DNA from: Nanobdellota archaeon
GTDB taxonomy: Archaea > Nanobdellota > Nanobdellia > Parvarchaeales > Parvarchaeaceae
Length of the DNA: 64,000 bases
Assembly (NCBI GenBank): GCA_021811735.1
Contig: JAJZNK010000025.1
Location: forward strand, 4,718 to 68,717
Direction of reading: 5' to 3'
Part shown: piece after piece, positions 26,622 to 50,686 of the stretch
Numbering within the stretch: position 1 is the stretch's first letter
Layout: every line of letters starts with the position of its first letter
Position numbers and translations under genes: made by a program
Notes under the pieces: model-generated
The model's database searches: none
The model's input: only the letters and a program-made list of their open reading frames with translations
Told to the model about the DNA's origin: nothing

Positions 26622-27317
26622 ATGTCAATAAAAAAGGCACAATATTCAACCGAATATGTGATAGTCGTTGGCATCGGCATTGCAATAATAGCGTCCTTCT
26701 TAGTATATGCAATGCTTTTCTACGGTTCGTTTGCCTCAAGCTCCTCTGCCAATCAAATGATAACTATTGCAAATTCCCTTGCAAAAGAAGCCAACTATGT
26801 CGCTTTTCAAGGAGAGGGCTCAGTTCAGACTTTTCCTATAACTATACCTTTATTAGACCCACGACATTCGTTTTTCTGCGGTAATATAATAAAGCTACAG
26901 ACCTCCGCACAACTTGGAATTGCACAATCTGCAGAAAATATATCGGGTATGTTGCCTTTATCAAGTGGTTCATACACAGCATTTGTAAAGGCAACAAGCA
27001 ATCAGGTAATAGTAGGTTTAAGATTCGCAATTTCCTTGATAGAACAGTCATATAGTATTTCTTCTAATACTCTTTACTATTCACTTTCATTTTTTAATTA
27101 TTCCGATAAACCTGTGATAACTACCCAGTCCTTCAATATTAGCCTTTTTTCGACTAGTGGTGAGTATATAACTAGCGCAACTAGTTCTACGCCAGCCTCG
27201 TCTCCGAGCCAGATATCAGGAAGCCTGACATTGCCATCTTCTCCCACGGCAGAATATGTTGTAGAGATTTATCCATCAAATTCTGGTGATTATTCCTCAA
27301 CATGCATAAATACATGA
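26622..27317 (+). CDS. type IV pilin-like protein (class III signal peptide)
   Basis: MSIKKAQ-YSTEYVIVVGIGIAIIASFLVYAML: basic leader, A-Q, then a hydrophobic helix. The mature part is S/T-rich with 2 Cys. Confidence 0.6.
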   Translation: MSIKKAQYSTEYVIVVGIGIAIIASFLVYAMLFYGSFASSSSANQMITIANSLAKEANYVAFQGEGSVQTFPITIPLLDPRHSFFCGNIIKLQTSAQLGIAQSAENISGMLPLSSGSYTAFVKATSNQVIVGLRFAISLIEQSYSISSNTLYYSLSFFNYSDKPVITTQSFNISLFSTSGEYITSATSSTPASSPSQISGSLTLPSSPTAEYVVEIYPSNSGDYSSTCINT

Positions 27318-27399
27318 AGATTTCAAAGAATACGCAGAATTAATATCGTAGCATAAAGTTACTATAATATTTATAAACATCGTCTCCTTTATTTTATTC

Positions 27400-28623
27400 A
27401 TGCGAGCCAATCAGCATGATAAAGATAATTCCACAGCATTCTTGATGACTAAAACAGGCCAGTCAGCCTTAGAGTATATGATGACGTATGGTTGGGCAAT
27501 ACTGATTATAGTCATCGTAGCAGTAATCCTCTACAGTATGGGCATATTCAGTCCATCATCAAGCGTATCTTTCACAAGCTCAGGCTTCTCCCCTTTCACA
27601 GTCTCATCAGCAGTATGCAGCCAGGCAGGATTGAATCTGGAGATAACAGCAGGAGGTTTACCAAATAATGCCGTTTCGGCTACAATCACAAAAATATATT
27701 TTCAGTCAAACACTGGAACTACCGCCAAATTAAAAGAATATACTCCTTTATCTGCAGTGACAGTATCCGCCGGCAATTCCGCAGAAATAATTATTCCAAC
27801 CGTTGCATGTAATTCTGCAGGAACTACTTTTTCTTTATCGTCAAAACTCCAATACAGCTATTCAACGGCAGCGGGTAATGTTGTAATTAATGCAACAGGA
27901 GTAATATCTGGAAAATCTTCCACACCATTGGTGGGGAATTTTACAAATTCCAGCTATGTAACTTTACAAAACTCTACTTCATTGTATAATATATGGCACG
28001 GTGGTAATCATTATACTCTTTCCCTCTGGGTAAACCTAAAAAAAGTATACTCTTCATGCACTACCTTCTCTACGCCAAATTCAAATACTTGCAATTCATT
28101 TATACAAGAACAACAGGGTTGCACGTCAGGGTTAATACACTCTCCTCTGAATACAACGGGATACAATGTGCAAGTTGCAGAGTGGAATGGCACAAGTGGT
28201 TGTTCAGCAGGAGCATCGCAGTTTAGTTCTCCTGCTTTGTATGTGCCTTATAATAGATGGAAATTGATAACTGGTGTTCTAAACGAGGTAAGCGCCAATG
28301 ATTATACATTAACAGTTTGCGTAGATGCTCAGTGCGTCAGTAGCGCCACTTTCTCTGCTAATTCCTTTCCTAATATATACACAGATGCGTTTACTTTTAT
28401 TGTGGGAACCTATCAATTAAGTGGTAAAGCCGCTGACGTTCAGATATATAACGCATCGCTGTCACAATCCCAGATACAGATGTTATATAATCAGGGAATC
28501 GATAGTCAGCCGATTTTGACAAATAATCTAGTGGCTTGGCTTCCCCTAAATGGAAATGGTTACGATTATAGTGGAAATGGAAATACTGGTGGCTTAAATT
28601 CTATAGTGTTTACTCAATCTTAG
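27400..28623 (+). CDS. type IV pilin-like protein with C-terminal LamG/concanavalin-like lectin domain
   Basis: ..MTKTGQ-SALEYMMTYGWAILIIVIVAVILYSMGIF. The C-terminal pattern LSLWVNLKK ... GKAADVQIYNASLSQSQIQMLYNQGI is typical of LamG-type jelly rolls. Start is either ATG 27400 (about 25-30 nt after tatttata, so leaderless-like) or ATG 27445. Confidence 0.65.
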   Translation: MRANQHDKDNSTAFLMTKTGQSALEYMMTYGWAILIIVIVAVILYSMGIFSPSSSVSFTSSGFSPFTVSSAVCSQAGLNLEITAGGLPNNAVSATITKIYFQSNTGTTAKLKEYTPLSAVTVSAGNSAEIIIPTVACNSAGTTFSLSSKLQYSYSTAAGNVVINATGVISGKSSTPLVGNFTNSSYVTLQNSTSLYNIWHGGNHYTLSLWVNLKKVYSSCTTFSTPNSNTCNSFIQEQQGCTSGLIHSPLNTTGYNVQVAEWNGTSGCSAGASQFSSPALYVPYNRWKLITGVLNEVSANDYTLTVCVDAQCVSSATFSANSFPNIYTDAFTFIVGTYQLSGKAADVQIYNASLSQSQIQMLYNQGIDSQPILTNNLVAWLPLNGNGYDYSGNGNTGGLNSIVFTQS

Positions 28624-28783
28624 GCTGAAAGATCACATCACTTTTTTGTGTGTAATTTGTATCTTTGATTACATAATTTTAGAGCATAACTGAATAGACT
28701 TGGACATCTCTACCCATAAATGCTAGAATGATACCAATTAATTAAGGGCATGTATTTAGAATGCTTTAATTGTCTAAGCTTGT

Positions 28784-29422
28784 ATGCATTATATGCAGTA
28801 TTATCTGATTGGTGGCGGAGATATAAAAGCTGGAAAATTAAAAGCCATAGACAAAGATGCCATTTCTAAATCTAAGAACAAAAAAGTTCTTATTATTGAT
28901 CTTACTTCAAATGATTTAGATAAAATAAAAAAATACCATGAATTTTTGGACCAATATTTTATGAGTGTCTGTGCAGAAGAGGTACAGTTTATTTCTAAGC
29001 TAAAATCCACTGAGGATGTTAGACAGGCGCTTAACCTTGCTGGTGTTGTGTATTTGCCTGGCGGGAATACGAAGCTACTTCTGGAAAATATTAAAGAAAG
29101 AAACGTTGCACCAATCCTGAAAAAACTTGATACTACAATCGTTGGCAATTCCGCCGGGGCTTTAGTTTTGTGTAAAGAGGTAATTTTAACTAAAGACAAA
29201 GAAATAGAAGAAACACAGGTCTTTCCAGGTTTGGGCATGATTGACTTTTCAGTGGATGTGCATTATGATAACTCCCATGATAAAGAATTATTTGAGTTAT
29301 CAAAGAGCAGGGAGATATACGCAATTCCAGAGAATTGTGCGATTGTTTTTGATGATAAACTTAGTCATATTGGCCCAGTATATAAATTTTCTGAAGGTAA
29401 AAAAGAAAAAATAATTAATTAG
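28784..29422 (+). CDS. peptidase S51 (dipeptidase E / cyanophycinase-like)
   Basis: YLIGGG ... VYLPGGNTKLLL ... IVGNSAGALVL (nucleophile Ser context). Confidence 0.7.
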   Translation: MHYMQYYLIGGGDIKAGKLKAIDKDAISKSKNKKVLIIDLTSNDLDKIKKYHEFLDQYFMSVCAEEVQFISKLKSTEDVRQALNLAGVVYLPGGNTKLLLENIKERNVAPILKKLDTTIVGNSAGALVLCKEVILTKDKEIEETQVFPGLGMIDFSVDVHYDNSHDKELFELSKSREIYAIPENCAIVFDDKLSHIGPVYKFSEGKKEKIIN

Positions 29423-29656
29423 TTATTGAAAAAGTGTACGTTTTTAGACGGTCTCTAGTAAGAGTGTACGTAATTATCCCTTCTAACTTACATAGACGAT
29501 GGTTAGAATTTTACAGGATAACTGTGTATAAGAGCAAGAGAAAGTAGATCTTTGCTTTGCAACTAAGATTTCTGAAATCTAAAACGGTTTTGTGCAACAA
29601 GTCCGAATCTATGCAAAAAGTCCTACTTATTGCACAACGCCTTCAAAACAGAAAGC

Positions 29657-29664
29657 TTTATATA
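29657..29664 (+). promoter_or_regulatory. putative TATA box (with upstream purine-rich BRE-like aaag) for tfb
   Basis: gaaagcTTTATATAgg begins 36 nt upstream of ATG 29693. This spacing implies a very short leader. Confidence 0.4.
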
Positions 29665-29692
29665 GGAGTTATCACCATACTATATAAATCTT

Positions 29693-30616: not shown

Positions 30617-30659
30617 TCAACTAATAAAGATTATTATTTCCGGACTGCGGGTTTTCTTT

Positions 30660-31969: not shown

Positions 31970-31970
31970 A

Positions 31971-33185: not shown

Positions 33186-34919
33186 ATGAACATATCTAGG
33201 ATTAAGGAACTGGCAAACAGTTTCGATTCGCCGAAGATGTCTGCAGACGAGATAAATGATTATATATACGAACTCGAGGCTAGGGGGTCAAGTGCCGAGT
33301 CGCATTATTCTGGAGACCTTGATTTTAGGTATAAAAACTCTGAAGAATTAATAGATCCAGGTTTTATAGGAAATCCCTCAGGGTATCACCTCACGAAGGA
33401 CATCACGAAAAGATACCATTTCCAGACCGAGTACTTCTCCGTTACGCAGATACTCAGCATGCTAGGGTACAAAAACCTAAGGATTGCCGAGTCAGTCGAT
33501 CCGTCTTCGCTTTCCGGCCTGATGAATATGGTCTTCGAGAAGAAGAAAAATCTGGAAGACAGGATCATGCAGCTTCTTGGGAGCATAAATACAGTACTCA
33601 AATCCATAATAGCAATAACATACGAGCTTAAGGAGCTAGATAGAAATCTATATTTTTACGATGAGCTAAAGGACCGTGACAAGGAAAAGGCCGAAGCCGC
33701 GGAGCTGGCGTTAAAAAGAGTATTCCTTGATAACGTAGACGCAAGGAAGGGAGGAGCAAGTCTTTCTGCCCTTTCAAGATCTCCAACACAGGGTCAGGGT
33801 GGGCCAGGGTTTATAGACATAATGTCAGTATTCTACCAAGTAAAGAGTCTAAAGGAAGTGTCTCAGCTGGACAGAAACGAGCAGTATAAAAGCATACTTA
33901 AGAATAGGTATGTGGAGTATGAAAAATGGAAAGAAATAAACGGCAAAGATCTTAGAAGCAGGAAGGGCATGCTTTTGCAGTATCTGAAAAGTCAGATGGG
34001 TTCCTTTGATCTTTACGTTGACTGGTGCTCCACCTATCTTTCACTGCTTTCCAAAATGGGTTTAAATACGGCTAAAAGTGCGTCGGAATACATGAAAGGA
34101 AGCTCCAAGCCAGACATATTCGAGAATGAGTTGTTTTCAGTTTCAGTAGTCAGTTCCAAGCCAGTGTACGCAAAGGAATACGACGTTGAGTACACGCGAC
34201 TTTTCAAAAATAAAGGGCCTGAAATTCCAATATCAGTGGAACCTAAAAGCATAGTAGGTGATTTGCTTACAAGAGGTTATAAAGAGCATAGAAGGTCCTA
34301 CATATACAATAGGCTTAAAAAATATGGCCCGCTGGCATTTTCAGTAATCAAATTCACGATGGATTTCAAGGAAAAGCCAAGCAAGGAAGCGGCACAGCCG
34401 CCATACGAGGGAACTTTTTCTTTGCATATCTACCCATACAGCTTTACACCTGAAGAATTTTACCTCTATAAACGGGCTAACACAGCCAAGATACAGAAAA
34501 CTGTTTTTGCTGCCGTTAATCAATCGGTTTTCAATTCGCTTAGCATAATAAAAGAGGATCTTGACAAATACATTCTAGAGGCTGAAAAGGAAGAAGCCGC
34601 AAAGAAAAAGCCAAATAAACCTCAAAAAGAGTTTGCAATCTTTGACATCTATCGTGCGTTTAAGGATGACTTTACGGGCGTTTCTAAATCATTTTCCACT
34701 TTTTCCCAAGGCACTTCACAAAACAAGAGCGTATTCAGCGAAAAAGATGCGGAGTTGTACGAGATGCTTCTGAATTCCAAATTGTTTATGCGTCCAAGGA
34801 TTAAGACTATATTAGAGACAGGACTGTTTATATCAAATGAGGATGTCATGCATATATACGATGAGCTTAAGAACAGGACTGGACAGCTAAACTGGAAACC
34901 GCCATTTTCCGTTAACTAA
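33186..34919 (+). CDS. orphan 577-aa soluble protein, no recognisable family
   Basis: Long uninterrupted ORF with no TM segment. Coiled-coil-like stretch KNLEDRIMQLLGSINTVLKSIIAITYELKELDRNLYFYDELKDRDKEKAEAAELALKR. The first 45 codons of the track's ORF (from 33051) lie in the divergent promoter region. Confidence 0.6.
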   Translation: MNISRIKELANSFDSPKMSADEINDYIYELEARGSSAESHYSGDLDFRYKNSEELIDPGFIGNPSGYHLTKDITKRYHFQTEYFSVTQILSMLGYKNLRIAESVDPSSLSGLMNMVFEKKKNLEDRIMQLLGSINTVLKSIIAITYELKELDRNLYFYDELKDRDKEKAEAAELALKRVFLDNVDARKGGASLSALSRSPTQGQGGPGFIDIMSVFYQVKSLKEVSQLDRNEQYKSILKNRYVEYEKWKEINGKDLRSRKGMLLQYLKSQMGSFDLYVDWCSTYLSLLSKMGLNTAKSASEYMKGSSKPDIFENELFSVSVVSSKPVYAKEYDVEYTRLFKNKGPEIPISVEPKSIVGDLLTRGYKEHRRSYIYNRLKKYGPLAFSVIKFTMDFKEKPSKEAAQPPYEGTFSLHIYPYSFTPEEFYLYKRANTAKIQKTVFAAVNQSVFNSLSIIKEDLDKYILEAEKEEAAKKKPNKPQKEFAIFDIYRAFKDDFTGVSKSFSTFSQGTSQNKSVFSEKDAELYEMLLNSKLFMRPRIKTILETGLFISNEDVMHIYDELKNRTGQLNWKPPFSVN

Positions 34920-34921
34920 AT

Positions 34922-35095
34922 ATGAACAACAAAGGACAGATGCCAATCACCGAGATAATAGCTATAATATTGGCAATACTTGTGCTTTTCGCAGGGATAG
35001 TAATTGCCATAATATTCACAGGAGCAAGCGCAACAATCGGAAAGGACATAACCAACGTTTTTTCGTTCAACTGGCTTTATGGAAAGGGGATATGA
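34922..35095 (+). CDS. micro-ORF A, 57 aa, pilin-like N-terminus plus single TM
   Basis: Hand translation: MNNKGQMPITEIIAIILAILVLFAGIVIAIIFTGASATIGKDITNVFSFNWLYGKGI. Starts 2 nt after the 577-aa ORF stop. Absent from the track (<60 aa). Confidence 0.5.
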   Translation: MNNKGQMPITEIIAIILAILVLFAGIVIAIIFTGASATIGKDITNVFSFNWLYGKGI

Positions 35096-35265
35096 CGAAA
35101 AAGGGGGTCGTAAGTGGCATGTTTTTGTACATAATCTTGATAATAGTAGGAGTGCTGCTCGTAATTATTTTCCTTCAGCTATTTACCCCCTATAAATTTA
35201 CCGGTCTTTTCAAAGATTTCGTGTCAAGATCGACCAGCATTAATGTCAGTGGTGGGTATACTTAA
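35092..35265 (+). CDS. micro-ORF B, 57 aa, basic N-terminus plus single TM
   Basis: MTKKGVVSGMFLYIILIIVGVLLVIIFLQLFTPYKFTGLFKDFVSRSTSINVSGGYT. ATGA overlap with micro-ORF A. Confidence 0.5.
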   Translation: MTKKGVVSGMFLYIILIIVGVLLVIIFLQLFTPYKFTGLFKDFVSRSTSINVSGGYT

Positions 35266-35266
35266 T

Positions 35267-35407
35267 ATGAATAATAAGGGAGTAGAGAGCTATATCCTTC
35301 TTATAATAATAACCCTTATAGTGTTGATACTTCTAATAATCTTTTATCTTTATTTATTTTCGCCTACAATGTTACATAGGCTAATACCCACAGTCCCAAA
35401 CATATAA
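35267..35407 (+). CDS. micro-ORF C, 46 aa, basic N-terminus plus single TM
   Basis: MNNKGVESYILLIIITLIVLILLIIFYLYLFSPTMLHRLIPTVPNI. Starts 1 nt after the stop of B. Confidence 0.5.
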   Translation: MNNKGVESYILLIIITLIVLILLIIFYLYLFSPTMLHRLIPTVPNI

Positions 35408-35408
35408 C

Positions 35409-35570
35409 ATGGAAGCGATATGGTTTTACGTAATAGCTGTAATCCTTGGTATAACCCTTATAATAGTATATATGCTCTTTGCGGGACCTTCTGTAATCTC
35501 TAAAGATATTTCAGGCTTTTTTGCGGGGATAGGGTCGTCGATAATGTCCGGATTTAAAAACGCCTATTAA
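35409..35570 (+). CDS. micro-ORF D, 53 aa, single TM
   Basis: MEAIWFYVIAVILGITLIIVYMLFAGPSVISKDISGFFAGIGSSIMSGFKNAY. Starts 1 nt after the stop of C. Its stop overlaps the next ATG (TAATG). Confidence 0.45.
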   Translation: MEAIWFYVIAVILGITLIIVYMLFAGPSVISKDISGFFAGIGSSIMSGFKNAY

Positions 35571-36175: not shown

Positions 36176-37702
36176 ATGACATTCTTCAGGGAAAAGATAG
36201 AGGAAAGAGAGTATCAAGAAAAAATATTCGATGCTTGCAAGGCTGGTAACACCTTAGTGGTTCTTCCAACAGGATTGGGTAAAACAATAATAAGTGCGAT
36301 GCTTGTAGATCACAGGCTTCAAAAATACCCTAACTCCAGGGCGCTTTTTCTGGCGCCGACTAAACCCCTACTAAATCAGCACATGAGGACATTCTCCGAA
36401 CTTATGAACTTAAAACTCGGCATAGCGAGCGGATCCGTTTCTGGCAAGGAAAGGGAGAAATTATATTCTGAATCTCAGCTAGTATTTGCAACACCTCAGA
36501 CAATCGGAAATGACATGGAAAAAGGCAGGATAGACTTTTCTAATTTTAGCTTGCTAATAGTAGACGAAGCGCATCATACCGTAGGCAACTATTCTTATGT
36601 GAAGATCGCAAAGGAATACCTGCAGGCAAGTGTTCATCCACTTATACTCGGGTTGACGGCCTCCCCTGCCTCCGAGCGTGAAAAGATTAGGACAATATGC
36701 AGCAATCTTCAGATAACAAATGTGGAGATAAGATCGGAGGAAGACAGTGACGTCATACCATATATAAAGAGGAAGGAAGTAGAAGAAGTAAAAGTCGATC
36801 TTTCAAGCGATCTGATAGATCTGGCGAACCGAGTCAAAATAATGATAAAGGATTCTATAATCGAACTGCAGAGTGCCGGGTTACTTAAGAACACAATGCA
36901 GAGCAAGATTAACCGTGTTACCATACTACTCCTTCAGAAAAGTTTACAGAGACAGATGTTCAGTGGCAAGAGGTCATTCTATCTTATACGCGGTATAATA
37001 CTGACATCGAAACTGCTAAAACTTTATCATGCATATAATCTGGTAGCTACTCAGAGTCTATCAGCTTTCTTTAATTTTCTGCTAAAGATAGAATCCGGAA
37101 AGGCAAAAACAGATAAGGAACTCGCATCCGATCCCAAGTTCATCTATTTAAGAGAGCGTGCCGAAGAGCTGCTAAATAACGGCGTAGAGCATCCTAAGCT
37201 TGAGAAACTTGTCTATCTTCTTGGTAGTTATTTTTCAGAGGATAAGAAGGCAATAATATTCGCGCAGTACCGGGATACGGTCGATGCAATTTACAGCCGC
37301 ATACGTGTTTTAAATGGAGTCAGACCCGTAAAATTCATAGGCCAAGGTAAGGGGGGGTTGTCGCAGAAGGAACAAATAAGTATAATAAAAGATTTTGAGG
37401 AGGGGGTGTACAACGTTCTTGTCTCTACAAGCGTAAGTGAGGAGGGGATGTCGATAAAAGGAGTAGACATCGCGGTCTTCTATGAGACTATTCCAAGCGC
37501 AATAAGAAACATACAGAGAAGAGGAAGAGTGGGCAGGTTTGCAGCAGGAAGGATATTCATACTCATAACCAGCGGCACGAACGACGAGGGGTATTATTGG
37601 CTTTCGAAGAGGAGAGAAAAGAGCATGAAAAGAATAATAAAGAACATAAAGGAAAATCCGGAAACGATAAGGCAGGATGGAACTTTAAAACCTTTTGCTT
37701 AA
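36176..37702 (+). CDS. hef: Hef/FANCM-family superfamily-2 helicase (helicase domains only, no ERCC4 nuclease domain)
   Basis: REYQEKIF, LPTGLGKT, IVDEAHH, LGLTASP and QRRGRVGR motifs. ATG directly follows the GINS stop. Confidence 0.8.
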   Translation: MTFFREKIEEREYQEKIFDACKAGNTLVVLPTGLGKTIISAMLVDHRLQKYPNSRALFLAPTKPLLNQHMRTFSELMNLKLGIASGSVSGKEREKLYSESQLVFATPQTIGNDMEKGRIDFSNFSLLIVDEAHHTVGNYSYVKIAKEYLQASVHPLILGLTASPASEREKIRTICSNLQITNVEIRSEEDSDVIPYIKRKEVEEVKVDLSSDLIDLANRVKIMIKDSIIELQSAGLLKNTMQSKINRVTILLLQKSLQRQMFSGKRSFYLIRGIILTSKLLKLYHAYNLVATQSLSAFFNFLLKIESGKAKTDKELASDPKFIYLRERAEELLNNGVEHPKLEKLVYLLGSYFSEDKKAIIFAQYRDTVDAIYSRIRVLNGVRPVKFIGQGKGGLSQKEQISIIKDFEEGVYNVLVSTSVSEEGMSIKGVDIAVFYETIPSAIRNIQRRGRVGRFAAGRIFILITSGTNDEGYYWLSKRREKSMKRIIKNIKENPETIRQDGTLKPFA

Positions 37703-39668: not shown

Positions 39669-40559
39669 CTACGCTTGAGGTATACAGATAAAAACCCTGC
39701 TTTGGCTGTAAACCATGTAATTACTTAGTGTCCCACAGAGTGGCACGAAATAATTACAACCTGAGCTTTCAGTTAGTATGTTTTGGGAAGGGTTTCCGTT
39801 GCTTAAGGAGCTTACGGTCTCCGTCGTCTGGTTTGCTGTCTGGTTTGAATAGTCGCAGACAGCAGGATTATTTATCAGTGGCTGATCGTAAGTAGAAGTA
39901 TATCTGCACTGGTTTTGGAAACTTATCTGACAGTTTGCTATCCCTCCACTTGGATATCCGAAATAGGTTACAACGTAGCTGCCGTTCAATAACTTGTCAG
40001 AGGGAGATATATATTGTGCGTTACCGTTGCTCCCGTTCGTTATAAACACTATTTGCAATGGATAACTCCCTGCGTAATTATTGTCAGTGTAGTTTATAAT
40101 CGAAAGATAGTTAATGTTTTTGTTCGGATTTATTATCGAGCCCTTATAACAGTTGAACATCTGGTTTAAGTTTTTAGCAGATATCACCTGCGAGCCTGTC
40201 ACGGCGTTTCCTCCAGAGAACAGGCTAAAGCACGACGAAGCCTGAGTGTAAAACTGGCTGGCGAAGCTGTAGGCGGATTTTTCATTGATATTCGCAGACT
40301 GCAGACAGTTCCTCTGTACTTGTGCAGACTGGGTTGGGCTGATTAAAACGTTCGAAAAACCTAAAAAGTACGTAGCCGATGTGAACGGCGAAAGAAAAGT
40401 GTTTACTATTTTATACTGCGTGAATGACGTAAAGCAACTTAGTCCGAAACTCAGCGTCCCAAATGATGTTATAACCGAAAATGAAACCACAGATAGCACT
40501 ATTCCGGCTATTACGACAAGGATGACAAAGACAATGGTTAAAAGTATTCCCTCTTCCAT
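39669..40559 (-). CDS. Cys-rich secreted/pilin-like protein, unknown family
   Basis: MEEG-ILLTIVFVILVVIAGIVLSVV N-terminal helix. 296 aa, 10 Cys, N/S/T-rich. Confidence 0.5.
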   Translation of the reverse strand: MEEGILLTIVFVILVVIAGIVLSVVSFSVITSFGTLSFGLSCFTSFTQYKIVNTFLSPFTSATYFLGFSNVLISPTQSAQVQRNCLQSANINEKSAYSFASQFYTQASSCFSLFSGGNAVTGSQVISAKNLNQMFNCYKGSIINPNKNINYLSIINYTDNNYAGSYPLQIVFITNGSNGNAQYISPSDKLLNGSYVVTYFGYPSGGIANCQISFQNQCRYTSTYDQPLINNPAVCDYSNQTANQTTETVSSLSNGNPSQNILTESSGCNYFVPLCGTLSNYMVYSQSRVFICIPQA

Positions 40560-40717
40560 TATGACCCTCCTAAAAGATTACCGAAATAGGAAAAGGGAGA
40601 ACTGCTGTGCGCAGAGGTATAGAAAAGCATGACTACTATGGATATCGCAACGAGTGCGGTTATTATCACGAGTACTATCCATATCAGTCTCCATTCAACG
40701 CTTGCTTTTCTGTTCAT
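40559..40717 (-). CDS. 52-aa pilin-like micro-ORF (absent from track)
   Basis: Hand translation: MNRKASVEWRLIWIVLVIITALVAISIVVMLFYTSAHSSSPFSYFGNLLGGS. Starts 1 nt after the upstream stop; its TAA overlaps the next ATG. Confidence 0.45.
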   Translation of the reverse strand: MNRKASVEWRLIWIVLVIITALVAISIVVMLFYTSAHSSSPFSYFGNLLGGS

Positions 40718-40718: not shown

Positions 40719-41228
40719 TCACTGACCAACGCACGGAGGACAGTAAGGTCCGTCTCCTGCTACGCATGAAGGTATATTTATTGCGCAGTTTTGTATGTCA
40801 GTAGCATTGTTTGCGATAATTGTGCTGTCAGCACAGCTTTCCAATGCGGCTGTATTTGTAGGGGATATCGTGCTACACGCATTTGTGATGTTAGAACTAG
40901 GACTTGCTATACAGTTTTGAACAGCTATCTGGCTTCCTTTCCCATTTATGTAGTTATAATAATAACACCAGTGTCTTATACAAGTCTGCTGGGCAGTAGC
41001 TGCATTGAAACAGGCGTTCGTACCATAGCATCTGAAGAGAGGAGTGCCCTCCAGTCTGTTCGCATAGCCGTATTCCGCGCTCGTAAATTGGTTCTGGAGA
41101 AGGTTTGTAGCCGAATCGCAGCCTACTGGAAAGATGGATGAGTAATTACCATAAAACAAGAAAAACATTGTTAGTGACACAACTATCCCAAGTAGTATCT
41201 CGAAGAAAAGGAACTGCTCTGCATCCAT
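40719..41228 (-). CDS. Cys-rich secreted/pilin-like protein (first gene of operon)
   Basis: MDAEQ-FLFFEILLGIVVSLTMFFLF (F1/E5-like spacing if cleaved after Q). 169 aa, 12 Cys including C-terminal CVAGDGPYCPPC. Confidence 0.5.
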   Translation of the reverse strand: MDAEQFLFFEILLGIVVSLTMFFLFYGNYSSIFPVGCDSATNLLQNQFTSAEYGYANRLEGTPLFRCYGTNACFNAATAQQTCIRHWCYYYNYINGKGSQIAVQNCIASPSSNITNACSTISPTNTAALESCADSTIIANNATDIQNCAINIPSCVAGDGPYCPPCVGQ

Positions 41229-41724: not shown

Positions 41725-42159
41725 TCAGTTTATGATATTTCCTCTCGATGCTATAACTGGGGAAAAGGAAAGGTTCGTAGGAGTATAATAAATGTATCCG
41801 CTTCCAGAGAAGGAATTTCCGAAAGAAACTGATGTTAGATTGCATTGGGTCGTTTCCAGCGCCGGAAGATAGGTTTTCGAGCACACAAAATTCGTGTAGT
41901 TCACACCATTCACTATGAGAGATATTGCTTTGATTTTGATGTTCTCATTTAGTAAATTCTGAAATGATATGTAATATAGAGATTTCGACTGAAAGTATCC
42001 TTGTTTGATTCCAAATCCGGAAAATCCAGAGTAGCTTGGAGTAGAAGTGATTCCAGTAATGCCTGGGAAAAGAGTGAATATTATATAGAAGATAGAGCCC
42101 ACTACTGCGAGGGCTATGCTGTACTCTAATACCATCTCGAGAGATTCCTGTCCTTTCAT
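41725..42159 (-). CDS. type IV pilin-like protein
   Basis: From ATG 42159: MKGQ-ESLEMVLEYSIALAVVGSIFYIIFTLF. The track's longer ORF (to 42231) would run into the tRNA gene. Confidence 0.6.
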   Translation of the reverse strand: MKGQESLEMVLEYSIALAVVGSIFYIIFTLFPGITGITSTPSYSGFSGFGIKQGYFQSKSLYYISFQNLLNENIKIKAISLIVNGVNYTNFVCSKTYLPALETTQCNLTSVSFGNSFSGSGYIYYTPTNLSFSPVIASRGNIIN

Positions 42160-43723: not shown

Positions 43724-43973
43724 GTCTATAATAATTTTTTCTAGCAGTGTGTCCCCAACTAAAATTTCCTAGCTCATTTTTGCTTTCCACACCTACTTTT
43801 CCATGTTTAAGTGCAGTATAAAGATAGTGGTAAACCAATCTGCTAGAGACATTTTTCCCATTTTTCTTCAGCTCCTTGTAGACTTCGTAACCGGTTTTTT
43901 CACCGTCTGACAATGCGTTTATTACCGCTTCCATTAACTCATTGTCAATCTTTCTTGCCATATTCATGTGCAC
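43716..43973 (-). CDS. small winged-helix (PadR-like) DNA-binding protein
   Basis: 85 aa. LSDGEKTGYEVYKELKKNG..VSSRLVYHYLYTALKHGKV fits a wHTH pattern. Confidence 0.5.
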   Translation of the reverse strand: MHMNMARKIDNELMEAVINALSDGEKTGYEVYKELKKNGKNVSSRLVYHYLYTALKHGKVGVESKNELGNFSWGHTARKNYYRLK

Positions 43974-44470
43974 TGTGGTTCAGAATTATTTGTAGAAACA
44001 CAGATATAATTCAATATTTCACTGTAAGCCGTCTGGTTGTTTTGGAATCCCCCTATTTTATAGTATTCTCCGTTAAATATTATCATTGGAACCATATTTT
44101 TCCCTATAGAATTATACAGTGATATTGCAGAATAAGGTATGTCTGAGGACACATTGTTATTATATCCGGATATATTGAAATCCCATGCACAGAAGTATCC
44201 GCTGTAAAACGTGTTGTTACCCCATAATCCGAAAAGAGACGTAACCTCTTTAAATGAACTAAGTGTTGATGTGCATGTCTTGCAGTTGTTCGCGTAGTAT
44301 ATCACGAAAGCAGGTTTGCTTGGGGAACATAATCCCGACATGTTCAGGTCTATGCTGTGGAATGCATATGTCTGCTCTAGCATGTAATTCTGGTAATAAA
44401 AGAACATTCCTGCTGCTATCACAGCTACCGCGATAACAAAGTACGCGTAATGCTTACGTTTAGTTAGCAT
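43964..44470 (-). CDS. membrane-anchored thioredoxin-fold protein with CxxC (putative extracytoplasmic thiol-disulfide oxidoreductase)
   Basis: N-terminal TM (YAYFVIAVAVIAAGMFFYY), then FVIYYANNCKTCTS (beta1-CxxC-alpha1) and NMVPMIIFNGEYYKIGG (cis-Pro loop pattern). 6 Cys. Confidence 0.55.
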   Translation of the reverse strand: MLTKRKHYAYFVIAVAVIAAGMFFYYQNYMLEQTYAFHSIDLNMSGLCSPSKPAFVIYYANNCKTCTSTLSSFKEVTSLFGLWGNNTFYSGYFCAWDFNISGYNNNVSSDIPYSAISLYNSIGKNMVPMIIFNGEYYKIGGFQNNQTAYSEILNYICVSTNNSEPQCT

Positions 44471-45371
44471 AAAACGACATGTTGAGCTTTTTCATTTCAG
44501 TCGAATTACAGCTATTCGAACTCGTCAATATGCAGATATTCGTGTAATTCCCAAGGCTCTTGTAAATACTTGTATAAGTTTGGGACTCAAAGAAGGAAGG
44601 GTCGGTAACTACGTTAAATATCTTAGAGTAGCTGCATGGTGTGGCGTTTATCAACCCGTATACTGGGAATTGGAATGGTCCGTAAACTGCAGTTTCATTT
44701 CCATAGTTCAGAATCTTACCGCTGCCAGTAAACACGATGTTAGCGGTCATCTGTTTCATCCTCAGAATTGCGCTTATCATGCTACTTTCGTTTTTGCTGG
44801 AATTAAAGAGTTGTATATCGTATTTAAGAGGATTCACAATGGTGTTGTTTTCGAGTCCCGACGACACAATCTCCCCATAATAATTTTTTATTCCAGAGTA
44901 AGTTGAATTAAAAATCGCTTCTAGTTCAGTAAAGTTCATGGTTCTACTGATGAGATTTGACAGCTGTGAATATGCCACGGTACAATTCGTTTTATTCTCG
45001 ACGCTGCACATTGACGTAGTCGCAATATCAGTTACTATCTGGCTATACTGGTTTTCAAGTGTGCCGGAAAGCAAAGCCGATGACGGGAATACTGGAGAAA
45101 ATTCGTAGTTGCAGCCGAAGACTATAGTATTATTAGGCAATCCACCGTAAAAATAGTACAAGTCCTTATCTGATAGACTACTGAGATTTATTTTATAATT
45201 GGACAGAAAACCACTGAGTTTTGCAGAATTTGTGCCGTTTGTCTGCACAGAGAAAGTGACTGGGTTAAATGGATAAACATAGAGTATAGCCGCGAAAGTG
45301 GCAAGCATTATAACTATCAATATTAGGGTTCTCAGTAATTTCTGATTATTTTCCATCATCAAGTTCTTCAC
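44460..45371 (-). CDS. N-terminally anchored extracellular protein, sequon-rich, unknown family
   Basis: LLRTLILIVIMLATFAAILYVY anchor. More than 12 N-x-S/T sequons and 6 Cys. Overlaps both neighbours. Confidence 0.45.
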   Translation of the reverse strand: MKNLMMENNQKLLRTLILIVIMLATFAAILYVYPFNPVTFSVQTNGTNSAKLSGFLSNYKINLSSLSDKDLYYFYGGLPNNTIVFGCNYEFSPVFPSSALLSGTLENQYSQIVTDIATTSMCSVENKTNCTVAYSQLSNLISRTMNFTELEAIFNSTYSGIKNYYGEIVSSGLENNTIVNPLKYDIQLFNSSKNESSMISAILRMKQMTANIVFTGSGKILNYGNETAVYGPFQFPVYGLINATPCSYSKIFNVVTDPSFFESQTYTSIYKSLGNYTNICILTSSNSCNSTEMKKLNMSFYAN

Positions 45372-46143
45372 TTAGTTTCTTCGCAGTTTCCTCTGGTGAG
45401 TAGTTGATTCTGTTTATACCTAGTGCATCCACTGGATCGATTTCGCCAACCATGAGGTTTATCTCGAAATGCTCTGCACCGGACTGCATGATGTTTATTG
45501 TTATCCCTTGTCTCAGTTTTTTCATTGTCTTCATTAGGAAGTTGGCTATTTCGAACGCTATTACCTCATCGAGCTGATCAATTGCAGTGTGCTTTACAGG
45601 GGTTATCTTAAGCATTTCATTCCTTTTCGGAGCGAATGGAACGTAACCTATTACCCCGCTTGTCTTGAATACCACTCTGTTTCCAGCGTTTTTCATATTT
45701 TCGCACACAAAGCATTTTTCAGGAATATGCCGCGGTACTGGTAGAACCAAAACATCCCAATAATCATGTGCGTCAACGTATCTGCTTATTGATATATTGT
45801 TCCCTATATCATATTTTTTGATGTCTTTGATTCTGTCGCTTATTACAAGCAGGAGTTTTTCGATATCGTCAGCATTATAACTTCTAAAATTGGGAGAATG
45901 TTTTTCGTTTTCTACGATTATCTCTTCATACCCATGTGCATTCGATTTTTTGAGGAATTGCCCAGCTAATTCATATTTTGATGGTTGCACTCTATCCTTT
46001 AATTCATAAATCTTTAAGTAGCCATTTTTAAATTCTATTGATTTTAGTTCGTTTTTGTTGTAAATGCATTCTTTACAGCCACTTTTCTCTGTACTCACTA
46101 ACGAAAATCCCAAGTCGACGGGATCCAGCCGATATTCTTCCAT
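45346..46143 (-). CDS. GalT-like (galactose-1-phosphate uridylyltransferase / HIT-superfamily) protein, active-site motif apparently degenerate
   Basis: CFVCENMKNAGNRVVFKTSGVIGYVPFAPKRNEMLKITPVKH resembles a GalT half-domain. The expected H-x-H-x-Q position reads EHFEINL. Confidence 0.45.
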   Translation of the reverse strand: MEEYRLDPVDLGFSLVSTEKSGCKECIYNKNELKSIEFKNGYLKIYELKDRVQPSKYELAGQFLKKSNAHGYEEIIVENEKHSPNFRSYNADDIEKLLLVISDRIKDIKKYDIGNNISISRYVDAHDYWDVLVLPVPRHIPEKCFVCENMKNAGNRVVFKTSGVIGYVPFAPKRNEMLKITPVKHTAIDQLDEVIAFEIANFLMKTMKKLRQGITINIMQSGAEHFEINLMVGEIDPVDALGINRINYSPEETAKKLSEELDDGK

Positions 46144-47721
46144 TTAGCCTTCTAGCCTCGATATTATTCTTGCGAATGCAGGTCTTGTGACTAGCAGTCC
46201 TATCAGTGACGCAAGTATGGTCGTCAGGGCGAACCCAGCAAACAAGCTAGCAGTCGAGAACAGCAGCGGGAACATTATCGCCGCGAATGAGAAGAAAGAA
46301 ACGAATATTATGAAGAATGCTCTGCTTATTCTTTTCTTTGTTACAGCATACTCTTCCTGAGAAGAACCTCTACGCATCTCGTCTGTTATTATTATCTGGT
46401 CGTCAACGGAGATACCTATGCTCGCTATGATTCCTGCCATACTCGGGATGTCAAGCGTCCAGTGTATCGCGGCGGCCACGCCTATTACTATGAATATTTC
46501 GGTTATACTTGTAAGTAGTATCAAGGATGACACTTTGTAGTCTTTGTACCTCAAAAATATAACGATGCTTACCAGTACGAATGCTACAAGCAGAAGCAAG
46601 TAAATCTGGTTTATGAACTGGCTTCCTGCCGTTGGTGAAACGGAATTTATTGACACCACTTTCAATGGCACTGGCAGACTACCAGACTGCATTATAGCCT
46701 GGAGTGTCTTCATATTCGATGTGGCCTGCTGCTGGTCAACACCAGATCCTTCGATGGTTATGGCTCCGTTAAAATTGGTAAGTATATTAGTAGAGATAAG
46801 TAGCGGCTGACCTTGTTGCACTCCATTAAGATACAAGTGTATTCTCTTGTTAAAGTATCCCGGGTTGGAAGTCGACGGTACGAGAGCCTTTACTCCTGTT
46901 TCAAAGTTCTTCGCAGCTCCGCTTGCCATCTGTATACCGAACTGGAAAGAGTAACCGTTTGCCACAGTAGGTGTTTGGTATGCTCCGAAAGGACAGCCTG
47001 CCGAAAGGCATACATCAAGTATACTTTCGCTCGAGTTGCTGCTATTGAATACTGTAAAGTTCCCTATAGTAGCATAGAATTTACCCTGATTCTGTATCAA
47101 AGATAAAGCCTGGCTTTCTCCAACGTTTGGCATGCTTATCATTATAAATGATTTGCCTGATAGTGTCTGGATGGTACTGACAGTAGTTCCGCTTATCCCA
47201 TAGACATCCAGTCTTTTTGAAAGAGTGATTTCCAGCGTGTTGACGAGCGTGGAATTATAATTGGTTGCATTCGGAACGATTTCTATCTGTGTCCCCCCTA
47301 TTATGTCTAACCCATAGTTTAGGCGCGTAGAAGGCACGTTTTGAGTCTGGATTGTGGATGAGTTGAACACAGCACCTGGTTCCACGAAGATGTTTGTAGT
47401 GCTCGTCCCATATATGTAGGGAAATATCTCGTTTCTATATGTTAGATGCAGACTGCTGTTAACCACCGCGCTTTTGTTAAGCTGTGAGTAAAATTGCTGT
47501 ATGTTATGCACAGGTACGCCGTTTACCGCCGTTATTATTGATCCTGTTTGCAGGCTTATCAACCCTCTAGAACTTAAATTTCCAATATAGGAGTTTATTG
47601 GCATGTAAACTACTTGCGCTCCGTTAACATTCGTTATGTTCGGCTGTATAGCTAGGAAGGCCACGGCCACAAGCACAATCATTAGGATCACTCTCCAATC
47701 ATACAGTATTGACTTTGTCAT
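46144..47721 (-). CDS. secD: protein-export membrane protein SecD
   Basis: N-terminal TM, large periplasmic-type domain, and a C-terminal 6-TM block with ASIGISVDDQIIITDE. Follows secF with a 1-nt gap. Confidence 0.8.
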   Translation of the reverse strand: MTKSILYDWRVILMIVLVAVAFLAIQPNITNVNGAQVVYMPINSYIGNLSSRGLISLQTGSIITAVNGVPVHNIQQFYSQLNKSAVVNSSLHLTYRNEIFPYIYGTSTTNIFVEPGAVFNSSTIQTQNVPSTRLNYGLDIIGGTQIEIVPNATNYNSTLVNTLEITLSKRLDVYGISGTTVSTIQTLSGKSFIMISMPNVGESQALSLIQNQGKFYATIGNFTVFNSSNSSESILDVCLSAGCPFGAYQTPTVANGYSFQFGIQMASGAAKNFETGVKALVPSTSNPGYFNKRIHLYLNGVQQGQPLLISTNILTNFNGAITIEGSGVDQQQATSNMKTLQAIMQSGSLPVPLKVVSINSVSPTAGSQFINQIYLLLLVAFVLVSIVIFLRYKDYKVSSLILLTSITEIFIVIGVAAAIHWTLDIPSMAGIIASIGISVDDQIIITDEMRRGSSQEEYAVTKKRISRAFFIIFVSFFSFAAIMFPLLFSTASLFAGFALTTILASLIGLLVTRPAFARIISRLEG

Positions 47722-47722
47722 A

Positions 47723-48655
47723 TCACACTTTCTCCGTTTCCTTATACCCTAATCCATACAACTGCGTCGAGCCGTTCAGTATCCATACGGTGAAATCGTC
47801 GAATATTACCCCTATTATAAGGATTATAGCTATCTCATGAAGCGTCGAATTCGTAGTACCAATAAACAATATTATAAATGTTACCAACGCAGCGGCGTCC
47901 ATAGTTAGAGAAGTTTTTATAGTCCTGACAAGACGGTAGCGCATGCTAGCTTCCTCCCTTTTAAGTATGTTCGTTGCGAGTATTATGTTTCGGTCAGCAG
48001 AATAACCCATTATCATAAGTATGCCTGCTATTGAGGCAGTGGAGAACGTGAACCCCATTATATCAAGCACCCCAACTATGTTTATTATGTCGCTGATAAT
48101 GCTGACAACGTTTGAAAACGCCTGCCAGGCGCTTCGGAAGTAGAAAAGTGACACGGCGGCGACAAGCACGAACGCTATTCCTAGTAGGATAAGGGAGCTG
48201 TATATCGAGTTCTGGGCAAGTGTTGCGCTCACGAAGTTTATGCTTGAATCCTTTGCGTTTATTGGTATCTTTAATATATTTGAAAGGTCGGTCTTCAATA
48301 CAGTAGTATTTACATTCTTTCCAACGGTTATCGAGTAGCCCGTTACAGCGTTACTGAATGGCGCCCTAACCACGTTAACACTGACAGCCTGGCTCAACTG
48401 GGTCCCTAGGGAACTTGCTATCAGTGTTGGCGATACGCTCTGATTTGTGCTTATGATTATATTTGTTCCACCTGCAAGTGATATTCCCTCATTCACCACT
48501 TCTCCATGAACGTGGTAGTAATAACCTATAAACGAGGCGAAAAATATTACGAATATTATGGGTATAAAGACCATTTTCCTGTAATTTTTAAGGTAGTAAT
48601 CAACCAGTCTGTCTACCTCTTTACTTATTTTGCTTCTTACACCCATAAAGAACAT
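47723..48655 (-). CDS. secF: protein-export membrane protein SecF
   Basis: 310 aa. GILMIMGYSADRNIILATNILKRE resembles the SecF GYS-x-D motif region. Confidence 0.8.
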   Translation of the reverse strand: MFFMGVRSKISKEVDRLVDYYLKNYRKMVFIPIIFVIFFASFIGYYYHVHGEVVNEGISLAGGTNIIISTNQSVSPTLIASSLGTQLSQAVSVNVVRAPFSNAVTGYSITVGKNVNTTVLKTDLSNILKIPINAKDSSINFVSATLAQNSIYSSLILLGIAFVLVAAVSLFYFRSAWQAFSNVVSIISDIINIVGVLDIMGFTFSTASIAGILMIMGYSADRNIILATNILKREEASMRYRLVRTIKTSLTMDAAALVTFIILFIGTTNSTLHEIAIILIIGVIFDDFTVWILNGSTQLYGLGYKETEKV

Positions 48656-48708
48656 TTAATACGTGTTTTTATTAATTCTTAATGTATCCGTTCTTTTAAA
48701 GGTTTTAT

Positions 48709-49446: not shown

Positions 49447-49497
49447 ACTTTAGTAAGAGAATAGATAGTATAAATATTATTTGCTTTTAATTTAGAT

Positions 49498-50148
49498 ATG
49501 AAAGGGCAGTTCTCTTTTGAGTTCGTAGTCGACTTGGCCTTTGTTCTTGTCTTGATAGCGTTCATAGCCGTCTTTTTCACGCATATCTCAACGGGAAACC
49601 CCACGGTTTCGAGAATGAATGGGATATGCTATGAAATAGCAAGTTCAATCAATTCACTCGCCTCTTCCAACAGTTTTACAGTGGAATACCTACCGCTGCT
49701 GAACTTTACAAGCTTTGAAAATTATACTATAAACATATCAAACGGGATAATAATAGTATATGACGGGTCATTGAACAGTGGAAGCCTAGTTGCAGGGCAG
49801 AATATTGTTTCCTGCGGATCAAATACAATGCTTACTGAGAATGAGTCTTTCGGCCTGTCAAACCTTGCATTATATGTAAACTCATCGAATATCGCTCTGG
49901 CCTACGAATACGCAAACTACTCACAGAATCTTCCAATGTACCTAGATGTGGGAGGATTCGCTGGCAAAGTCAATCTTTCGCTAGAATACGCAAATGGGAC
50001 TTACTCCACTTTGGCCATGCAAAATTCACCATTTACTTACTTTGCAAATACACAGTCTATTCCTTTGCCAGCTGGAACGTATAATTACGTTGTAACAAGT
50101 GTTTTTAATCCAGATATACATGTAGAACTGCCATTTTCAGTAGGTTAG
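49498..50148 (+). CDS. type IV pilin-like protein
   Basis: MKGQ-FSFEFVVDLAFVLVLIAFIAVFF class III-like signal. N/S-rich, 2 Cys. Confidence 0.6.
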   Translation: MKGQFSFEFVVDLAFVLVLIAFIAVFFTHISTGNPTVSRMNGICYEIASSINSLASSNSFTVEYLPLLNFTSFENYTINISNGIIIVYDGSLNSGSLVAGQNIVSCGSNTMLTENESFGLSNLALYVNSSNIALAYEYANYSQNLPMYLDVGGFAGKVNLSLEYANGTYSTLAMQNSPFTYFANTQSIPLPAGTYNYVVTSVFNPDIHVELPFSVG

Positions 50149-50192
50149 ATACTATTTTTATAGGGTGGAACAATGCAAATTTTTATATTAGC

Positions 50193-50200
50193 TTTAAATA
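50193..50200 (+). promoter_or_regulatory. putative TATA box for pilin gene 50222
   Basis: tttaaata begins 29 nt upstream of ATG 50222, a leaderless-type spacing. Confidence 0.35.
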
Positions 50201-50221
50201 TAAGTAAATTTTACTATTACT

Positions 50222-50686
50222 ATGATGAAAGGACAGTCAGCATTAGAGTACATGATGACCTATGGTTGGGCAATCCTGATTATAGTCATCGTAGCTGTAA
50301 TCCTGTACTCCATGGGCATTTTTAACCCAGGAGCAAGCATAACCACAGCAAGTAGCGGGTTCAGTCCGTTCGCAGTAAGCGCGGCGGTTTGTAACACGAG
50401 CGGGTTATATGTGGCTTTTACAACGGGAGGTTTGCCGAATGGAGCTAGCAGTGCCAGTGCACTTAGCCTTACAGTCTCTGCTGGGACGGGTATAGGTAGC
50501 GGTAGCGGTGGTCCATATGCGGGCCCAGTTTCTCCTGGAACCACTTTTACTATAAAAGCTACCTCAACTTGCGCAACGTCTGGTGTTAGGTTCTCTACAT
50601 CCGGTACTTTAAGTTACAGTGTAACTACTGCCGTGGGAACTACAACAAATAATGCTACAGGTACAATAGCAGGAACAAGCAGCTAA
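50222..50686 (+). CDS. type IV pilin-like protein (candidate major pilin)
   Basis: MMKGQ-SALEYMMTYGWAILIIVIVAVILYSMGIF. The N-terminal module is nearly identical to that of 27400-28623. Small G/S/T/A-rich mature domain, 2 Cys. Confidence 0.7.
   Translation: MMKGQSALEYMMTYGWAILIIVIVAVILYSMGIFNPGASITTASSGFSPFAVSAAVCNTSGLYVAFTTGGLPNGASSASALSLTVSAGTGIGSGSGGPYAGPVSPGTTFTIKATSTCATSGVRFSTSGTLSYSVTTAVGTTTNNATGTIAGTSS

Follow-up and report, generated by a model that had tools for sequence, protein, structure and literature searches.

Why does a compact archaeal genome gather so many pilin-like genes in one place, and why do the surface proteins encoded there carry even numbers of cysteines (Cys)? Both questions are raised by a stretch of 64,000 nucleotides (the window; positions 4718-68717 of contig C3) from Parvarchaeum, an ultrasmall, acid-mine DPANN archaeon of the ARMAN-4/5 type, and in particular by a ~24-kb interval of 32 genes at window positions 26622-50686. 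A sequence-only reading of this interval had listed 13 open reading frames (ORFs) with pilin-like N-termini, counted even Cys numbers in all predicted surface proteins, and proposed a large, disulfide-stabilized and probably N-glycosylated surface repertoire. Its observation is confirmed by the present analysis, and its interpretation of the surface repertoire is supported. The explanation that we favor, with a probability of roughly 0.7, is that the interval is a conserved core region dense in type IV pilin-like surface proteins that would be (i) exported by Sec, (ii) cleaved by an A24 peptidase, (iii) built as a stem with lectin-like heads, and (iv) stabilized by disulfides and glycans. The assembly used comprises 877,581 bp in 52 contigs (guanine-plus-cytosine content ~0.38, completeness 88.8%); a purpose-written hexamer-based gene caller yielded 1,029 genes at a coding density of 91%.

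Class III signals in the interval and across the genome

Class III signals were assigned by a strict rule that demands K or R at position -2 or -3 and G, A or S at -1 of a cleavage site that falls among the first 24 residues, a hydrophobic window of 15 residues right after the site, and a single transmembrane (TM) segment; the same proteins reversed served as the control. A census with a looser motif was dropped as too noisy (68 real versus 36 reversed proteins), and the strict rule was used instead. The genome-wide census that the sequence-only reading had proposed as a check then returned 45 proteins against 7 reversed controls, with Gln at position +1 in 28 of the 45 and in none of the control. 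Ten of these 45 proteins lie inside the interval, where 1.2 would be expected (binomial p=3e-7), and are encoded by the genes starting at 26622, 27400, 34922, 35092, 35267, 37699, 40559, 41725, 49498 and 50222. Thus, ten of the 13 ORFs listed earlier pass the strict rule. The N-termini quoted for them were all reproduced by translation (KA/QYSTEY, TG/QSALEY, KG/QSALEY, KG/QESLEMVLEY, KG/QFSFEF and KG/ASEVEY; the slash marks the predicted cleavage site).

Class III candidates amount to ~45 of ~1,029 genes (4.4%) and exported single-anchor proteins to 9.2% of the genome, which bears out the earlier view of a large repertoire, disproportionate for the genome. Within the interval, half of the genes (16/32) encode single-anchor exported or small TM proteins. 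For comparison, FlaFind positives number 16 in Methanococcus maripaludis, 20 in Sulfolobus acidocaldarius and 47 in Haloferax volcanii, all of which have much larger genomes (PMC4371748). The genes of the interval on which the argument rests are the following (window coordinates; lengths in amino acids, aa; L090 is a distant contig used for comparison).

26622-27317, plus strand: 231-aa class III protein (MSIKKA/QYSTEY) with 2 Cys; strict motif, no Pfam or NCBIfam match.
27400-28623, plus strand: modular pilin of the QSALEYMMTYGW family with 8 Cys; Laminin_G_3 match (E=1.8e-9), family census, AlphaFold, Foldseek.
34922-35095, plus strand: 57-aa micro-protein MNNKG/QMPITEII, candidate tiny pilin; strict motif, L090 ortholog KRG/EMPITEII.
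35092-35265, plus strand: 57-aa micro-protein MTKKG/VVSG, candidate tiny pilin; strict motif, L090 ortholog MDRKG/AIEG.
35267-35407, plus strand: 46-aa micro-protein MNNKG/VESY, candidate tiny pilin; strict motif, L090 ortholog MHKKG/VSDF.
35409-35570, plus strand: 53-aa single-TM micro-protein without a leader (MEAIWFYV); L090 ortholog with the leader MIKNKKG/VTEA.
37699-38172, minus strand: 157-aa class III protein (KG/ASEVEY) with 2 Cys, last gene of the Cys-rich operon; strict motif.
38154-39626, minus strand: 490-aa anchored exported protein with 24 conserved Cys and an atypical N-terminus; no family match.
39669-40559, minus strand: 296-aa anchored exported protein with 10 Cys; translation, L090 ortholog with 10 Cys.
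40559-40717, minus strand: 52-aa micro-protein MNRKA/SVEW, candidate tiny pilin; strict motif, uncalled L090 ORF MDKRG/LIEWRIVW.
40719-41228, minus strand: 169-aa anchored exported protein with 12 Cys, without a class III motif; L090 ortholog with 12 Cys.
41725-42159, minus strand: 144-aa class III protein (MKG/QESLEMVLEY) with 2 Cys; strict motif.
43964-44470, minus strand: 168-aa membrane-anchored CxxC protein with 6 invariant Cys, in the SecDF operon; alignments, motifs.
44460-45371, minus strand: ~300-aa anchored exported protein with 6 Cys and 15 sequons; no family match.
46144-48655, minus strand: SecD (46144-47721) and SecF (47723-48655), head of the minus-strand string; SecD_SecF_C matches (E=1.7e-15 and 2.1e-18).
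49498-50148, plus strand: 216-aa class III protein (MKG/QFSFEF) with 2 Cys; translation, strict motif.
50222-50686, plus strand: 154-aa minimal member of the QSALEYMMTYGW family, helix and pilin domain only, with 2 invariant Cys.

The gene order of the interval is kept in contig L090, whose homolog of 38154 is only 43% identical. The conserved order comprises (i) SecD, proteins of 267 and 321 aa, the CxxC protein, MinD, a pilin-like gene and L15e, (ii) the operon of 12-Cys, 10-Cys, 24-Cys and pilin-like genes, followed by a Hef-like helicase and GINS, and (iii) four micro-ORFs, a 586-aa protein, Trm1 and TFB. Also retained are the [KR]G motifs, together with the Cys counts of the operon (12, 10 and 24): the ortholog of 37699 keeps the motif as KRG/SSAIE and has 4 Cys, and that of 41725 reads MAKG/QSTLELLLGY and has 2 Cys. 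Because gene order, motifs and Cys counts are kept in such a distant contig, we read the interval as a set of conserved genes in a core chromosomal region, not as an island.

The gene at 35409 is the fourth member of a four-gene micro-protein set and was absent from the earlier list. At 33186-35570, this set stands behind a gene for a 577-aa soluble protein, which belongs to a DPANN-wide family (Pacearchaeota, Nanoarchaeota, Parvarchaeota and Acidifodinimicrobium) with no Pfam domain. In Parvarchaeota, the 577-aa protein is followed by four single-TM micro-ORFs of 46-58 aa; in two other DPANN contigs, its homolog is followed by a highly charged soluble protein instead. No functional clue to the micro-ORFs was gained from this neighbor, as they are absent downstream of it in the two other DPANN neighborhoods checked.

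Several points weigh against the favored explanation. Among the 13 ORFs listed earlier, 38154 (MAETPGEG/FIF) and 39669 (MEEG/ILL) match only the looser [DE]G form, a FlaFind pattern, and 40719 (MDAEQFLFF) has an N-terminal anchor without a recognizable cleavage motif. None of the class III or pilin N-terminal models of Pfam and NCBIfam matches at E values up to 10 (the best is DUF7287, E=0.076), and the window contains no pilus assembly gene. Class III signals also serve proteins that form no filaments, such as the sugar-binding proteins of Sulfolobus; therefore, for the large modular members we infer filament assembly rather than observe it.

A pilin family with one stem and many heads

The mature N-terminus QSALEYMMTYGWAILIIVIVAVILYSMGIF is common to 27400, 50222 and 17 other proteins of the genome, which makes at least 19 paralogs; a profile of the first 150 residues finds 28 matches. 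Over its first 30 residues, the mature protein is the same in 18 of the 19 copies, with a single amino-acid change in all. At the DNA level, the 90-nucleotide stem segment of the 19 copies has 29 variable sites, 24 of them at third codon positions, and any two copies differ at 2-20 of the 90 nucleotides (mean 10.6), nearly always synonymously. As the protein of the stem is identical while its DNA differs mainly at third positions, the identity of the helix is held by purifying selection on the protein; recent gene conversion as its source is ruled out by the synonymous divergence.

The same data bear on the possibility that the family is a system of recombination-driven variation, in which silent or alternative cassettes recombine at the conserved 5' segment to swap heads, in the manner of Neisseria pilE/pilS. 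Many copies with a common 5' region and diverse 3' parts fit such a scheme, and so do copies that are truncated or broken by assembly-masked positions (C40:18135, C52:46686), the position of several copies at contig ends, and a few pairs that are 91-96% identical in the pilin domain yet different downstream. However, frequent gene conversion would homogenize the stem DNA, and the copies are not promoterless cassettes, because most of them have their own leader and start codon. We thus regard cassette swapping as quite improbable. The leaders themselves vary among copies and include a 20-aa type (MR[AV]NQHDKDNSTAFLMTK[ST]G), 17-18-aa types and 3-4-aa types.

Behind the helix lies a domain of ~120 aa with two invariant Cys (C57 and C117 of 50222 in alignment A1, the same as C53 and C117 in alignment A3). 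This pilin domain is followed by nothing in 50222 and by a variable module in most copies: Laminin_G_3 in 27400 and others (E=1.8e-9 and 6.9e-14), DUF2341 in members of 470-500 aa (E=4.9e-7), and modules without family assignment in others. The C-terminal parts of the paralogs are 26-96% identical. From its N-terminus, 27400 accordingly consists of a 20-aa leader, the helix of 30 invariant residues, a pilin domain of the beta-sandwich type that holds the C53-C117 pair, and a lectin-like Laminin_G_3 module.

An AlphaFold model of mature 27400, computed with 49 family sequences, has a mean predicted local distance difference test score (pLDDT) of 78.8, with values above 90 in most of the pilin domain (most of residues 41-150), and consists of a helix at residues 2-26 followed by all-beta domains. 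When this model was compared with the PDB by Foldseek, ConA-like, pentraxin and LamG folds were found, together with PilC, a modular minor pilin from Streptococcus sanguinis (7oa7, E=9e-5), a type IV pilus subunit of Pyrobaculum calidifontis (8fk7, E=8e-3, probability 1.0) and Sulfolobus FlaF (4p94, probability 0.97). In the model, the pilin domain of 27400 thus resembles assembled archaeal pilins, with an N-terminal helix and a beta-sandwich. The short 50222, reduced to helix and pilin domain, is the best candidate for a filament-forming pilin.

The family is confined to Parvarchaeum/Parvarchaeota metagenome-assembled genomes (MAGs); it is also carried by Ca. Parvarchaeum acidiphilum ARMAN-4, Ca. 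P. acidophilus ARMAN-5 and many acid-mine 'Parvarchaeota/Nanoarchaeota' MAGs. Copy numbers range from 2 to 28 per genome in 19 genomes of the genus, as compared with 0-4 in 12 other families of the class. In the genome studied here, the family occupies at least 1.9% of the sequence, and several contigs end in or near its copies (C16:35563, C20:2, C26:4835, C46:17184, C15:35457 and C36:3). These copies have probably contributed to the fragmentation of the assembly, and the true copy number may be higher. A further locus outside the window (C18:5747-18940) holds a 194-aa pilin-like gene, a 1,135-aa class III protein (MDKKG/QANM, 18 Cys) and a 3,066-aa anchored protein (60 Cys, 95 sequons), which look like giant adhesin candidates. 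In the literature library searched, no paper was found on the Parvarchaeum pilin-lectin family, its invariant stem, or Cys parity in DPANN archaea; a genomics paper on Parvarchaeales mentions pilin genes briefly and holds nothing on cysteines or disulfides (PMC10134863).

The components required for cleavage and assembly are encoded elsewhere in the genome. One Peptidase_A24 gene is present (C47:1544-2371; 275 aa, A24 domain only, GGGD motif), adjoining further pilin-like genes, and the search of this 88.8% complete genome found no second, larger peptidase of the EppA type. Gln at +1 is a mark of EppA substrates (PMC4371748), and the core of the family, QSALE, has Glu at +5. One point of the sequence-only reading, which had linked Gln at +1 to EppA, needs correction: Gln stands at +1 in 28 of the 45 strict positives, but only one A24 peptidase is encoded, so a separate EppA is not shown. 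Two T2SSE ATPases (C52:25256 and C16:19459) and three T2SSF/TadC-like genes (C52:26721, C52:27554 and C16:17315) make up two PilB/TadC systems, one on C52 and the other on C16.

According to the favored explanation, the precursors would be exported through Sec, SecDF being encoded inside the interval, and the single A24 peptidase would cut them after [K/R]-x0-1-[G/A/S], with Gln following the cut in most cases. Once freed, the hydrophobic helix at the N-terminus would pack into a filament, or at least into a membrane-anchored stalk, with assembly by one of the two PilB/TadC systems. One common stem would in this way display many alternative sugar-binding heads, which may act as an adhesin repertoire for host cells or a biofilm matrix, and disulfides, N-glycans and the scarcity of charged residues would stabilize the exported ectodomains at very low pH.

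Alternatively, the class III signals may be only cleavable membrane anchors, and the proteins may form a surface coat or bindosome-like layer without pili, the helix being kept for recognition by the peptidase and for insertion into the membrane or a stalk. The heads of 350-480 aa on most members would be bulky for a homopolymeric filament, pilin-sized members are limited to 50222 and a few others, assembly genes do not adjoin the family in the window, and FlaFind positives of Sulfolobus include substrate-binding proteins (PMC4371748). On the other hand, identity over 30 residues in at least 19 paralogs, with near-identity across species, exceeds what anchoring needs. It also matches the situation in H. 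volcanii, whose six PilA pilins have a near-identical H-domain that is needed for pilus assembly (PMC4371748; PMC4858521). The similarity of the fold to the assembled archaeal pilin 8fk7 and the presence of two complete PilB/TadC systems likewise argue for pili. We therefore consider a coat without pili unlikely, though of appreciable weight.

Paired cysteines, probable N-glycans and ectodomain composition

The Cys counts made by hand in the sequence-only reading proved exact throughout: 2 (26622), 8 (27400), 2, 24, 10 and 12 (the operon), 2 (41725), 6 (43964), 6 (44460), 2 (49498) and 2 (50222). All 11 exported proteins of the interval that carry Cys have an even number, and the cytoplasmic genes carry 3, 5, 7, 1, 2, 1, 1, 4 and 2. 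The suggested comparison of secreted with cytoplasmic proteins was run over the whole genome for proteins with at least one Cys, single-anchor proteins being taken as exported. Even and odd counts stand at 61:3 among exported and at 231:314 (42% even) among cytoplasmic proteins (Fisher p=9e-18). The bias survives the collapse of paralogs (43 even, 1 odd) and counting within ectodomains only (62 even, 2 odd), and the even fraction of 0.95 compares with a binomial expectation of 0.47. Even Cys counts of this kind are an established sign that disulfides form outside the cytoplasm (PMC2823432).

Conservation of individual positions points in the same direction. In 38154, 23 Cys are invariant and one is nearly so in 20 homologs of 43-78% identity. 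Among 15 full-length LamG pilins, the Cys totals are all even, and the co-varying pairs are 53-117, which is always present, followed by 221-248, 287-292 and 200-211/230; the pilin paralogs gain and lose Cys in pairs. Parity, invariant positions and paired gain and loss together indicate that the exported ectodomains are disulfide-bonded.

These figures also bear on whether the N-termini and the even Cys counts could arise artificially from ORF calling in, or from the composition of, a genome that is AT-rich and rich in hydrophobic residues. The noise of the loose motif census and the failure of profile libraries to recognize the N-termini would fit such an origin. The strict census with its excess of Gln at +1, the retention of motifs, Cys numbers and gene order at 43% identity, and a parity bias that does not depend on paralogs refute it, and we give it almost no weight.

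The parity bias is not confined to this genome. Two relatives of the same class, G028 (fetched completely as a single 490,885-bp contig) and G027 (652 of 678 kb fetched), show even-to-odd ratios of 35:1 and 37:5 for ectodomains in the same pipeline. The paired-cysteine exoproteome is thus a class-wide trait, and the even counts noted earlier, exact as they are, are peculiar neither to the window nor to the genome. Neither relative has a detectable VKOR, the membrane protein of oxidative folding discussed next; therefore, VKOR is not required for parity. This counts against the part of the favored explanation that concerns disulfide catalysis, and VKOR was set aside as an exclusive explanation of the bias.

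A VKOR homolog of 152 aa (PF07884, E=1.6e-24) with four TM segments, a loop Cys pair (C39/C48) and the motif CIGC is encoded in the genome, and VKOR is detected in 18 of the 19 genomes of the genus and in none of the 12 other families of the class. A search of the genome found no Thioredoxin_4/DsbA protein; an anchored AhpC-TSA/Redoxin protein with the motif WCSSC is present at C49:1288-1842 (E=7e-9). From these sequences we infer that disulfides may be formed by the VKOR homolog acting with this redoxin, with 43964, or with both. The earlier claim of disulfide-stabilized surface proteins accordingly draws support from parity, the 24 conserved Cys of 38154, the paired gain and loss of Cys, the VKOR homolog and the anchored redoxin. 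Elsewhere in the window, at 10185-15473, membrane subunits of the complex I type (NuoJ, K, L, M and N-like, assigned by eye from translations) are encoded in this very small genome; these genes bear on the existence of a quinone pool for the reoxidation of VKOR.

The membrane-anchored protein 43964 carries the motifs VIYYANNCKTC and VPMIIFNGEYYKIGG and six invariant Cys (alignments A2 and A5). Only four further relatives were found among 1.84 billion representative proteins, and these remote homologs keep the CxxC and the Pro-strand motif exactly. Its motifs fit a thioredoxin/glutaredoxin-like fold, which makes it a candidate oxidoreductase of this kind. Against this assignment, profile comparison with the PDB gave only sub-threshold matches to thioredoxin and DsbA (E 0.28-0.57), Pfam searches were spurious or sub-threshold, and an AlphaFold model from 15 close homologs was poor (pLDDT 46.6). 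On the minus strand at 43964-48655, the gene belongs to a string made up of SecF-SecD, a soluble protein of 265 aa, an exported 6-Cys protein of 300 aa, the CxxC protein itself (168 aa) and a protein of 85 aa, and the string is conserved in a distant Parvarchaeota contig. This conservation suggests that the CxxC protein is functionally connected with export.

For N-glycosylation, a six-frame search of the genome with the Pfam STT3 model was negative, and absence of AglB was the first reading of this result. Weak STT3 matches in three genomes of the genus supplied queries for tblastn, which found an AglB-like ORF of 1,065 aa at C3:125732-128929, outside the window, with WWDYG at residue 732 and a long, charged, coiled-coil-like N-terminal extension. 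Absence of AglB is thereby ruled out, and as tblastn finds a divergent AglB, the negative STT3 search was a failure of sensitivity. Readily detected STT3 occurs in 3 of the 19 genomes of the genus and in 10 of the 12 other families, a pattern opposite to that of VKOR and due in part to divergence of the sequence, not to loss. Since the six-frame Pfam STT3 search misses the protein in 16 of the 19 genomes, the genus would probably be labeled AglB-negative by standard annotation.

Ectodomains hold 688 sequons versus 525 expected by shuffling (+31%, z=8.8; 2.9 per 100 aa), whereas cytoplasmic proteins hold 0.63 per 100 aa and show no excess (z=-1.7). With the AglB-like protein and its WWDYG motif, this excess supports the view, already voiced in the sequence-only reading, that the surface repertoire is probably N-glycosylated. 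The ectodomains are rich in S, T and N and poor in charged residues, with 2.9% K, 2.8% E, 1.2% R and 2.4% D as compared with 10.2, 7.3, 4.5 and 6.0% in cytoplasmic proteins. Such a composition is as expected for exposure to strong acid.

Relation to known systems and significance

The Parvarchaeum system is a lineage-specific, very large variant of three known themes, namely class III pilins that have their H-domain in common, pilins of modular build, and the oxidative folding of exported proteins. The first of these is represented by PilA1-PilA6 of H. volcanii (Esquivel et al. 2013, as reviewed in PMC4371748 and PMC4858521), which are likewise paralogous class III pilins with a near-identical H-domain and differing exposed parts, encoded away from PilB/PilC and served by a single prepilin peptidase. 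In contrast to the six copies in the ~4-Mb genome of H. volcanii, Parvarchaeum has at least 19 (28 profile matches) in 0.88 Mb, and its family differs by two features of EppA substrates (Gln at +1, Glu at +5), a large lectin-like module in most members, and an invariant Cys pair. The EppA-processed Epd pilins of M. maripaludis are similar in their KG/Q or RA/Q sites with Gln at +1 and often Glu at +5 (PMC4371748), and the very small major pilin of that species (~70 aa; PMC4858521) resembles the Parvarchaeum micro-proteins of 46-57 aa. Unlike M. maripaludis, Parvarchaeum has yielded one 275-aa A24 peptidase and no larger EppA-type enzyme, and its proteins match no class III profile.

The fusion of a pilin module to a C-terminal ConA-like/LamG lectin module is shared with the modular pilins of S. 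sanguinis (PilC, 7oa7; PilB). However, PilC is a bacterial single-copy minor pilin, whereas the Parvarchaeum pilin domain is an archaeal beta-sandwich and its family is massively paralogous. An expansion of LamG-like proteins, some of them at pilus loci, has been described for the micrarchaeon Mia14 and for DPANN archaea generally (Golyshina et al. 2017, PMC5498576). Mia14, too, is a DPANN symbiont from acid mines; its surface proteins of the jelly-roll LamG-like kind are expanded, and a role in host contact was proposed for them (PMC5498576). However, it belongs to Micrarchaeota rather than Parvarchaeum, and its description, in which pilins have 0 occurrences, contains neither a fusion to a pilin stem nor a shared invariant N-terminus.

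Oxidative folding by VKOR/DsbB and DsbA (Dutton et al. 2008; Daniels et al. 2010, PMC2823432) has its counterpart in the even-Cys exoproteome, in a VKOR with a loop Cys pair and CxxC, and in a putative exported thioredoxin-fold partner, for which the redoxin at C49:1288 and 43964 are the candidates. The differences are that Parvarchaeum is an archaeal acidophile, that no DsbA/Thioredoxin_4 protein was found in it, and that its relatives without VKOR share the even-Cys bias.

A bolder reading, which we offer tentatively and as possible rather than probable, is that the invariant stem is a display platform for more than 20 lectin-like heads that recognize hosts or a matrix. It would have been built up in the genus together with the gain of VKOR, as a set of disulfide-stapled, glycosylated, charge-poor adhesins working at a pH near 1, and paralogs mixed or switched within a single filament would adjust the choice of Thermoplasmatales host or glycan.

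For annotation, the consequence of these results is that standard profile searches find neither the pilins nor AglB. For structural and binding studies, the paired cysteines matter for the correct expression of such proteins. More generally, paired cysteines are a building principle of the exoproteome throughout this class of ultrasmall archaea, and two candidate catalysts can now be named, VKOR and the CxxC protein 43964, which is specific to the lineage. DPANN archaea spend their lives on hosts that they recognize and hold by largely unknown means, and the pilin family with its fixed stem is a concrete, testable candidate for this recognition.

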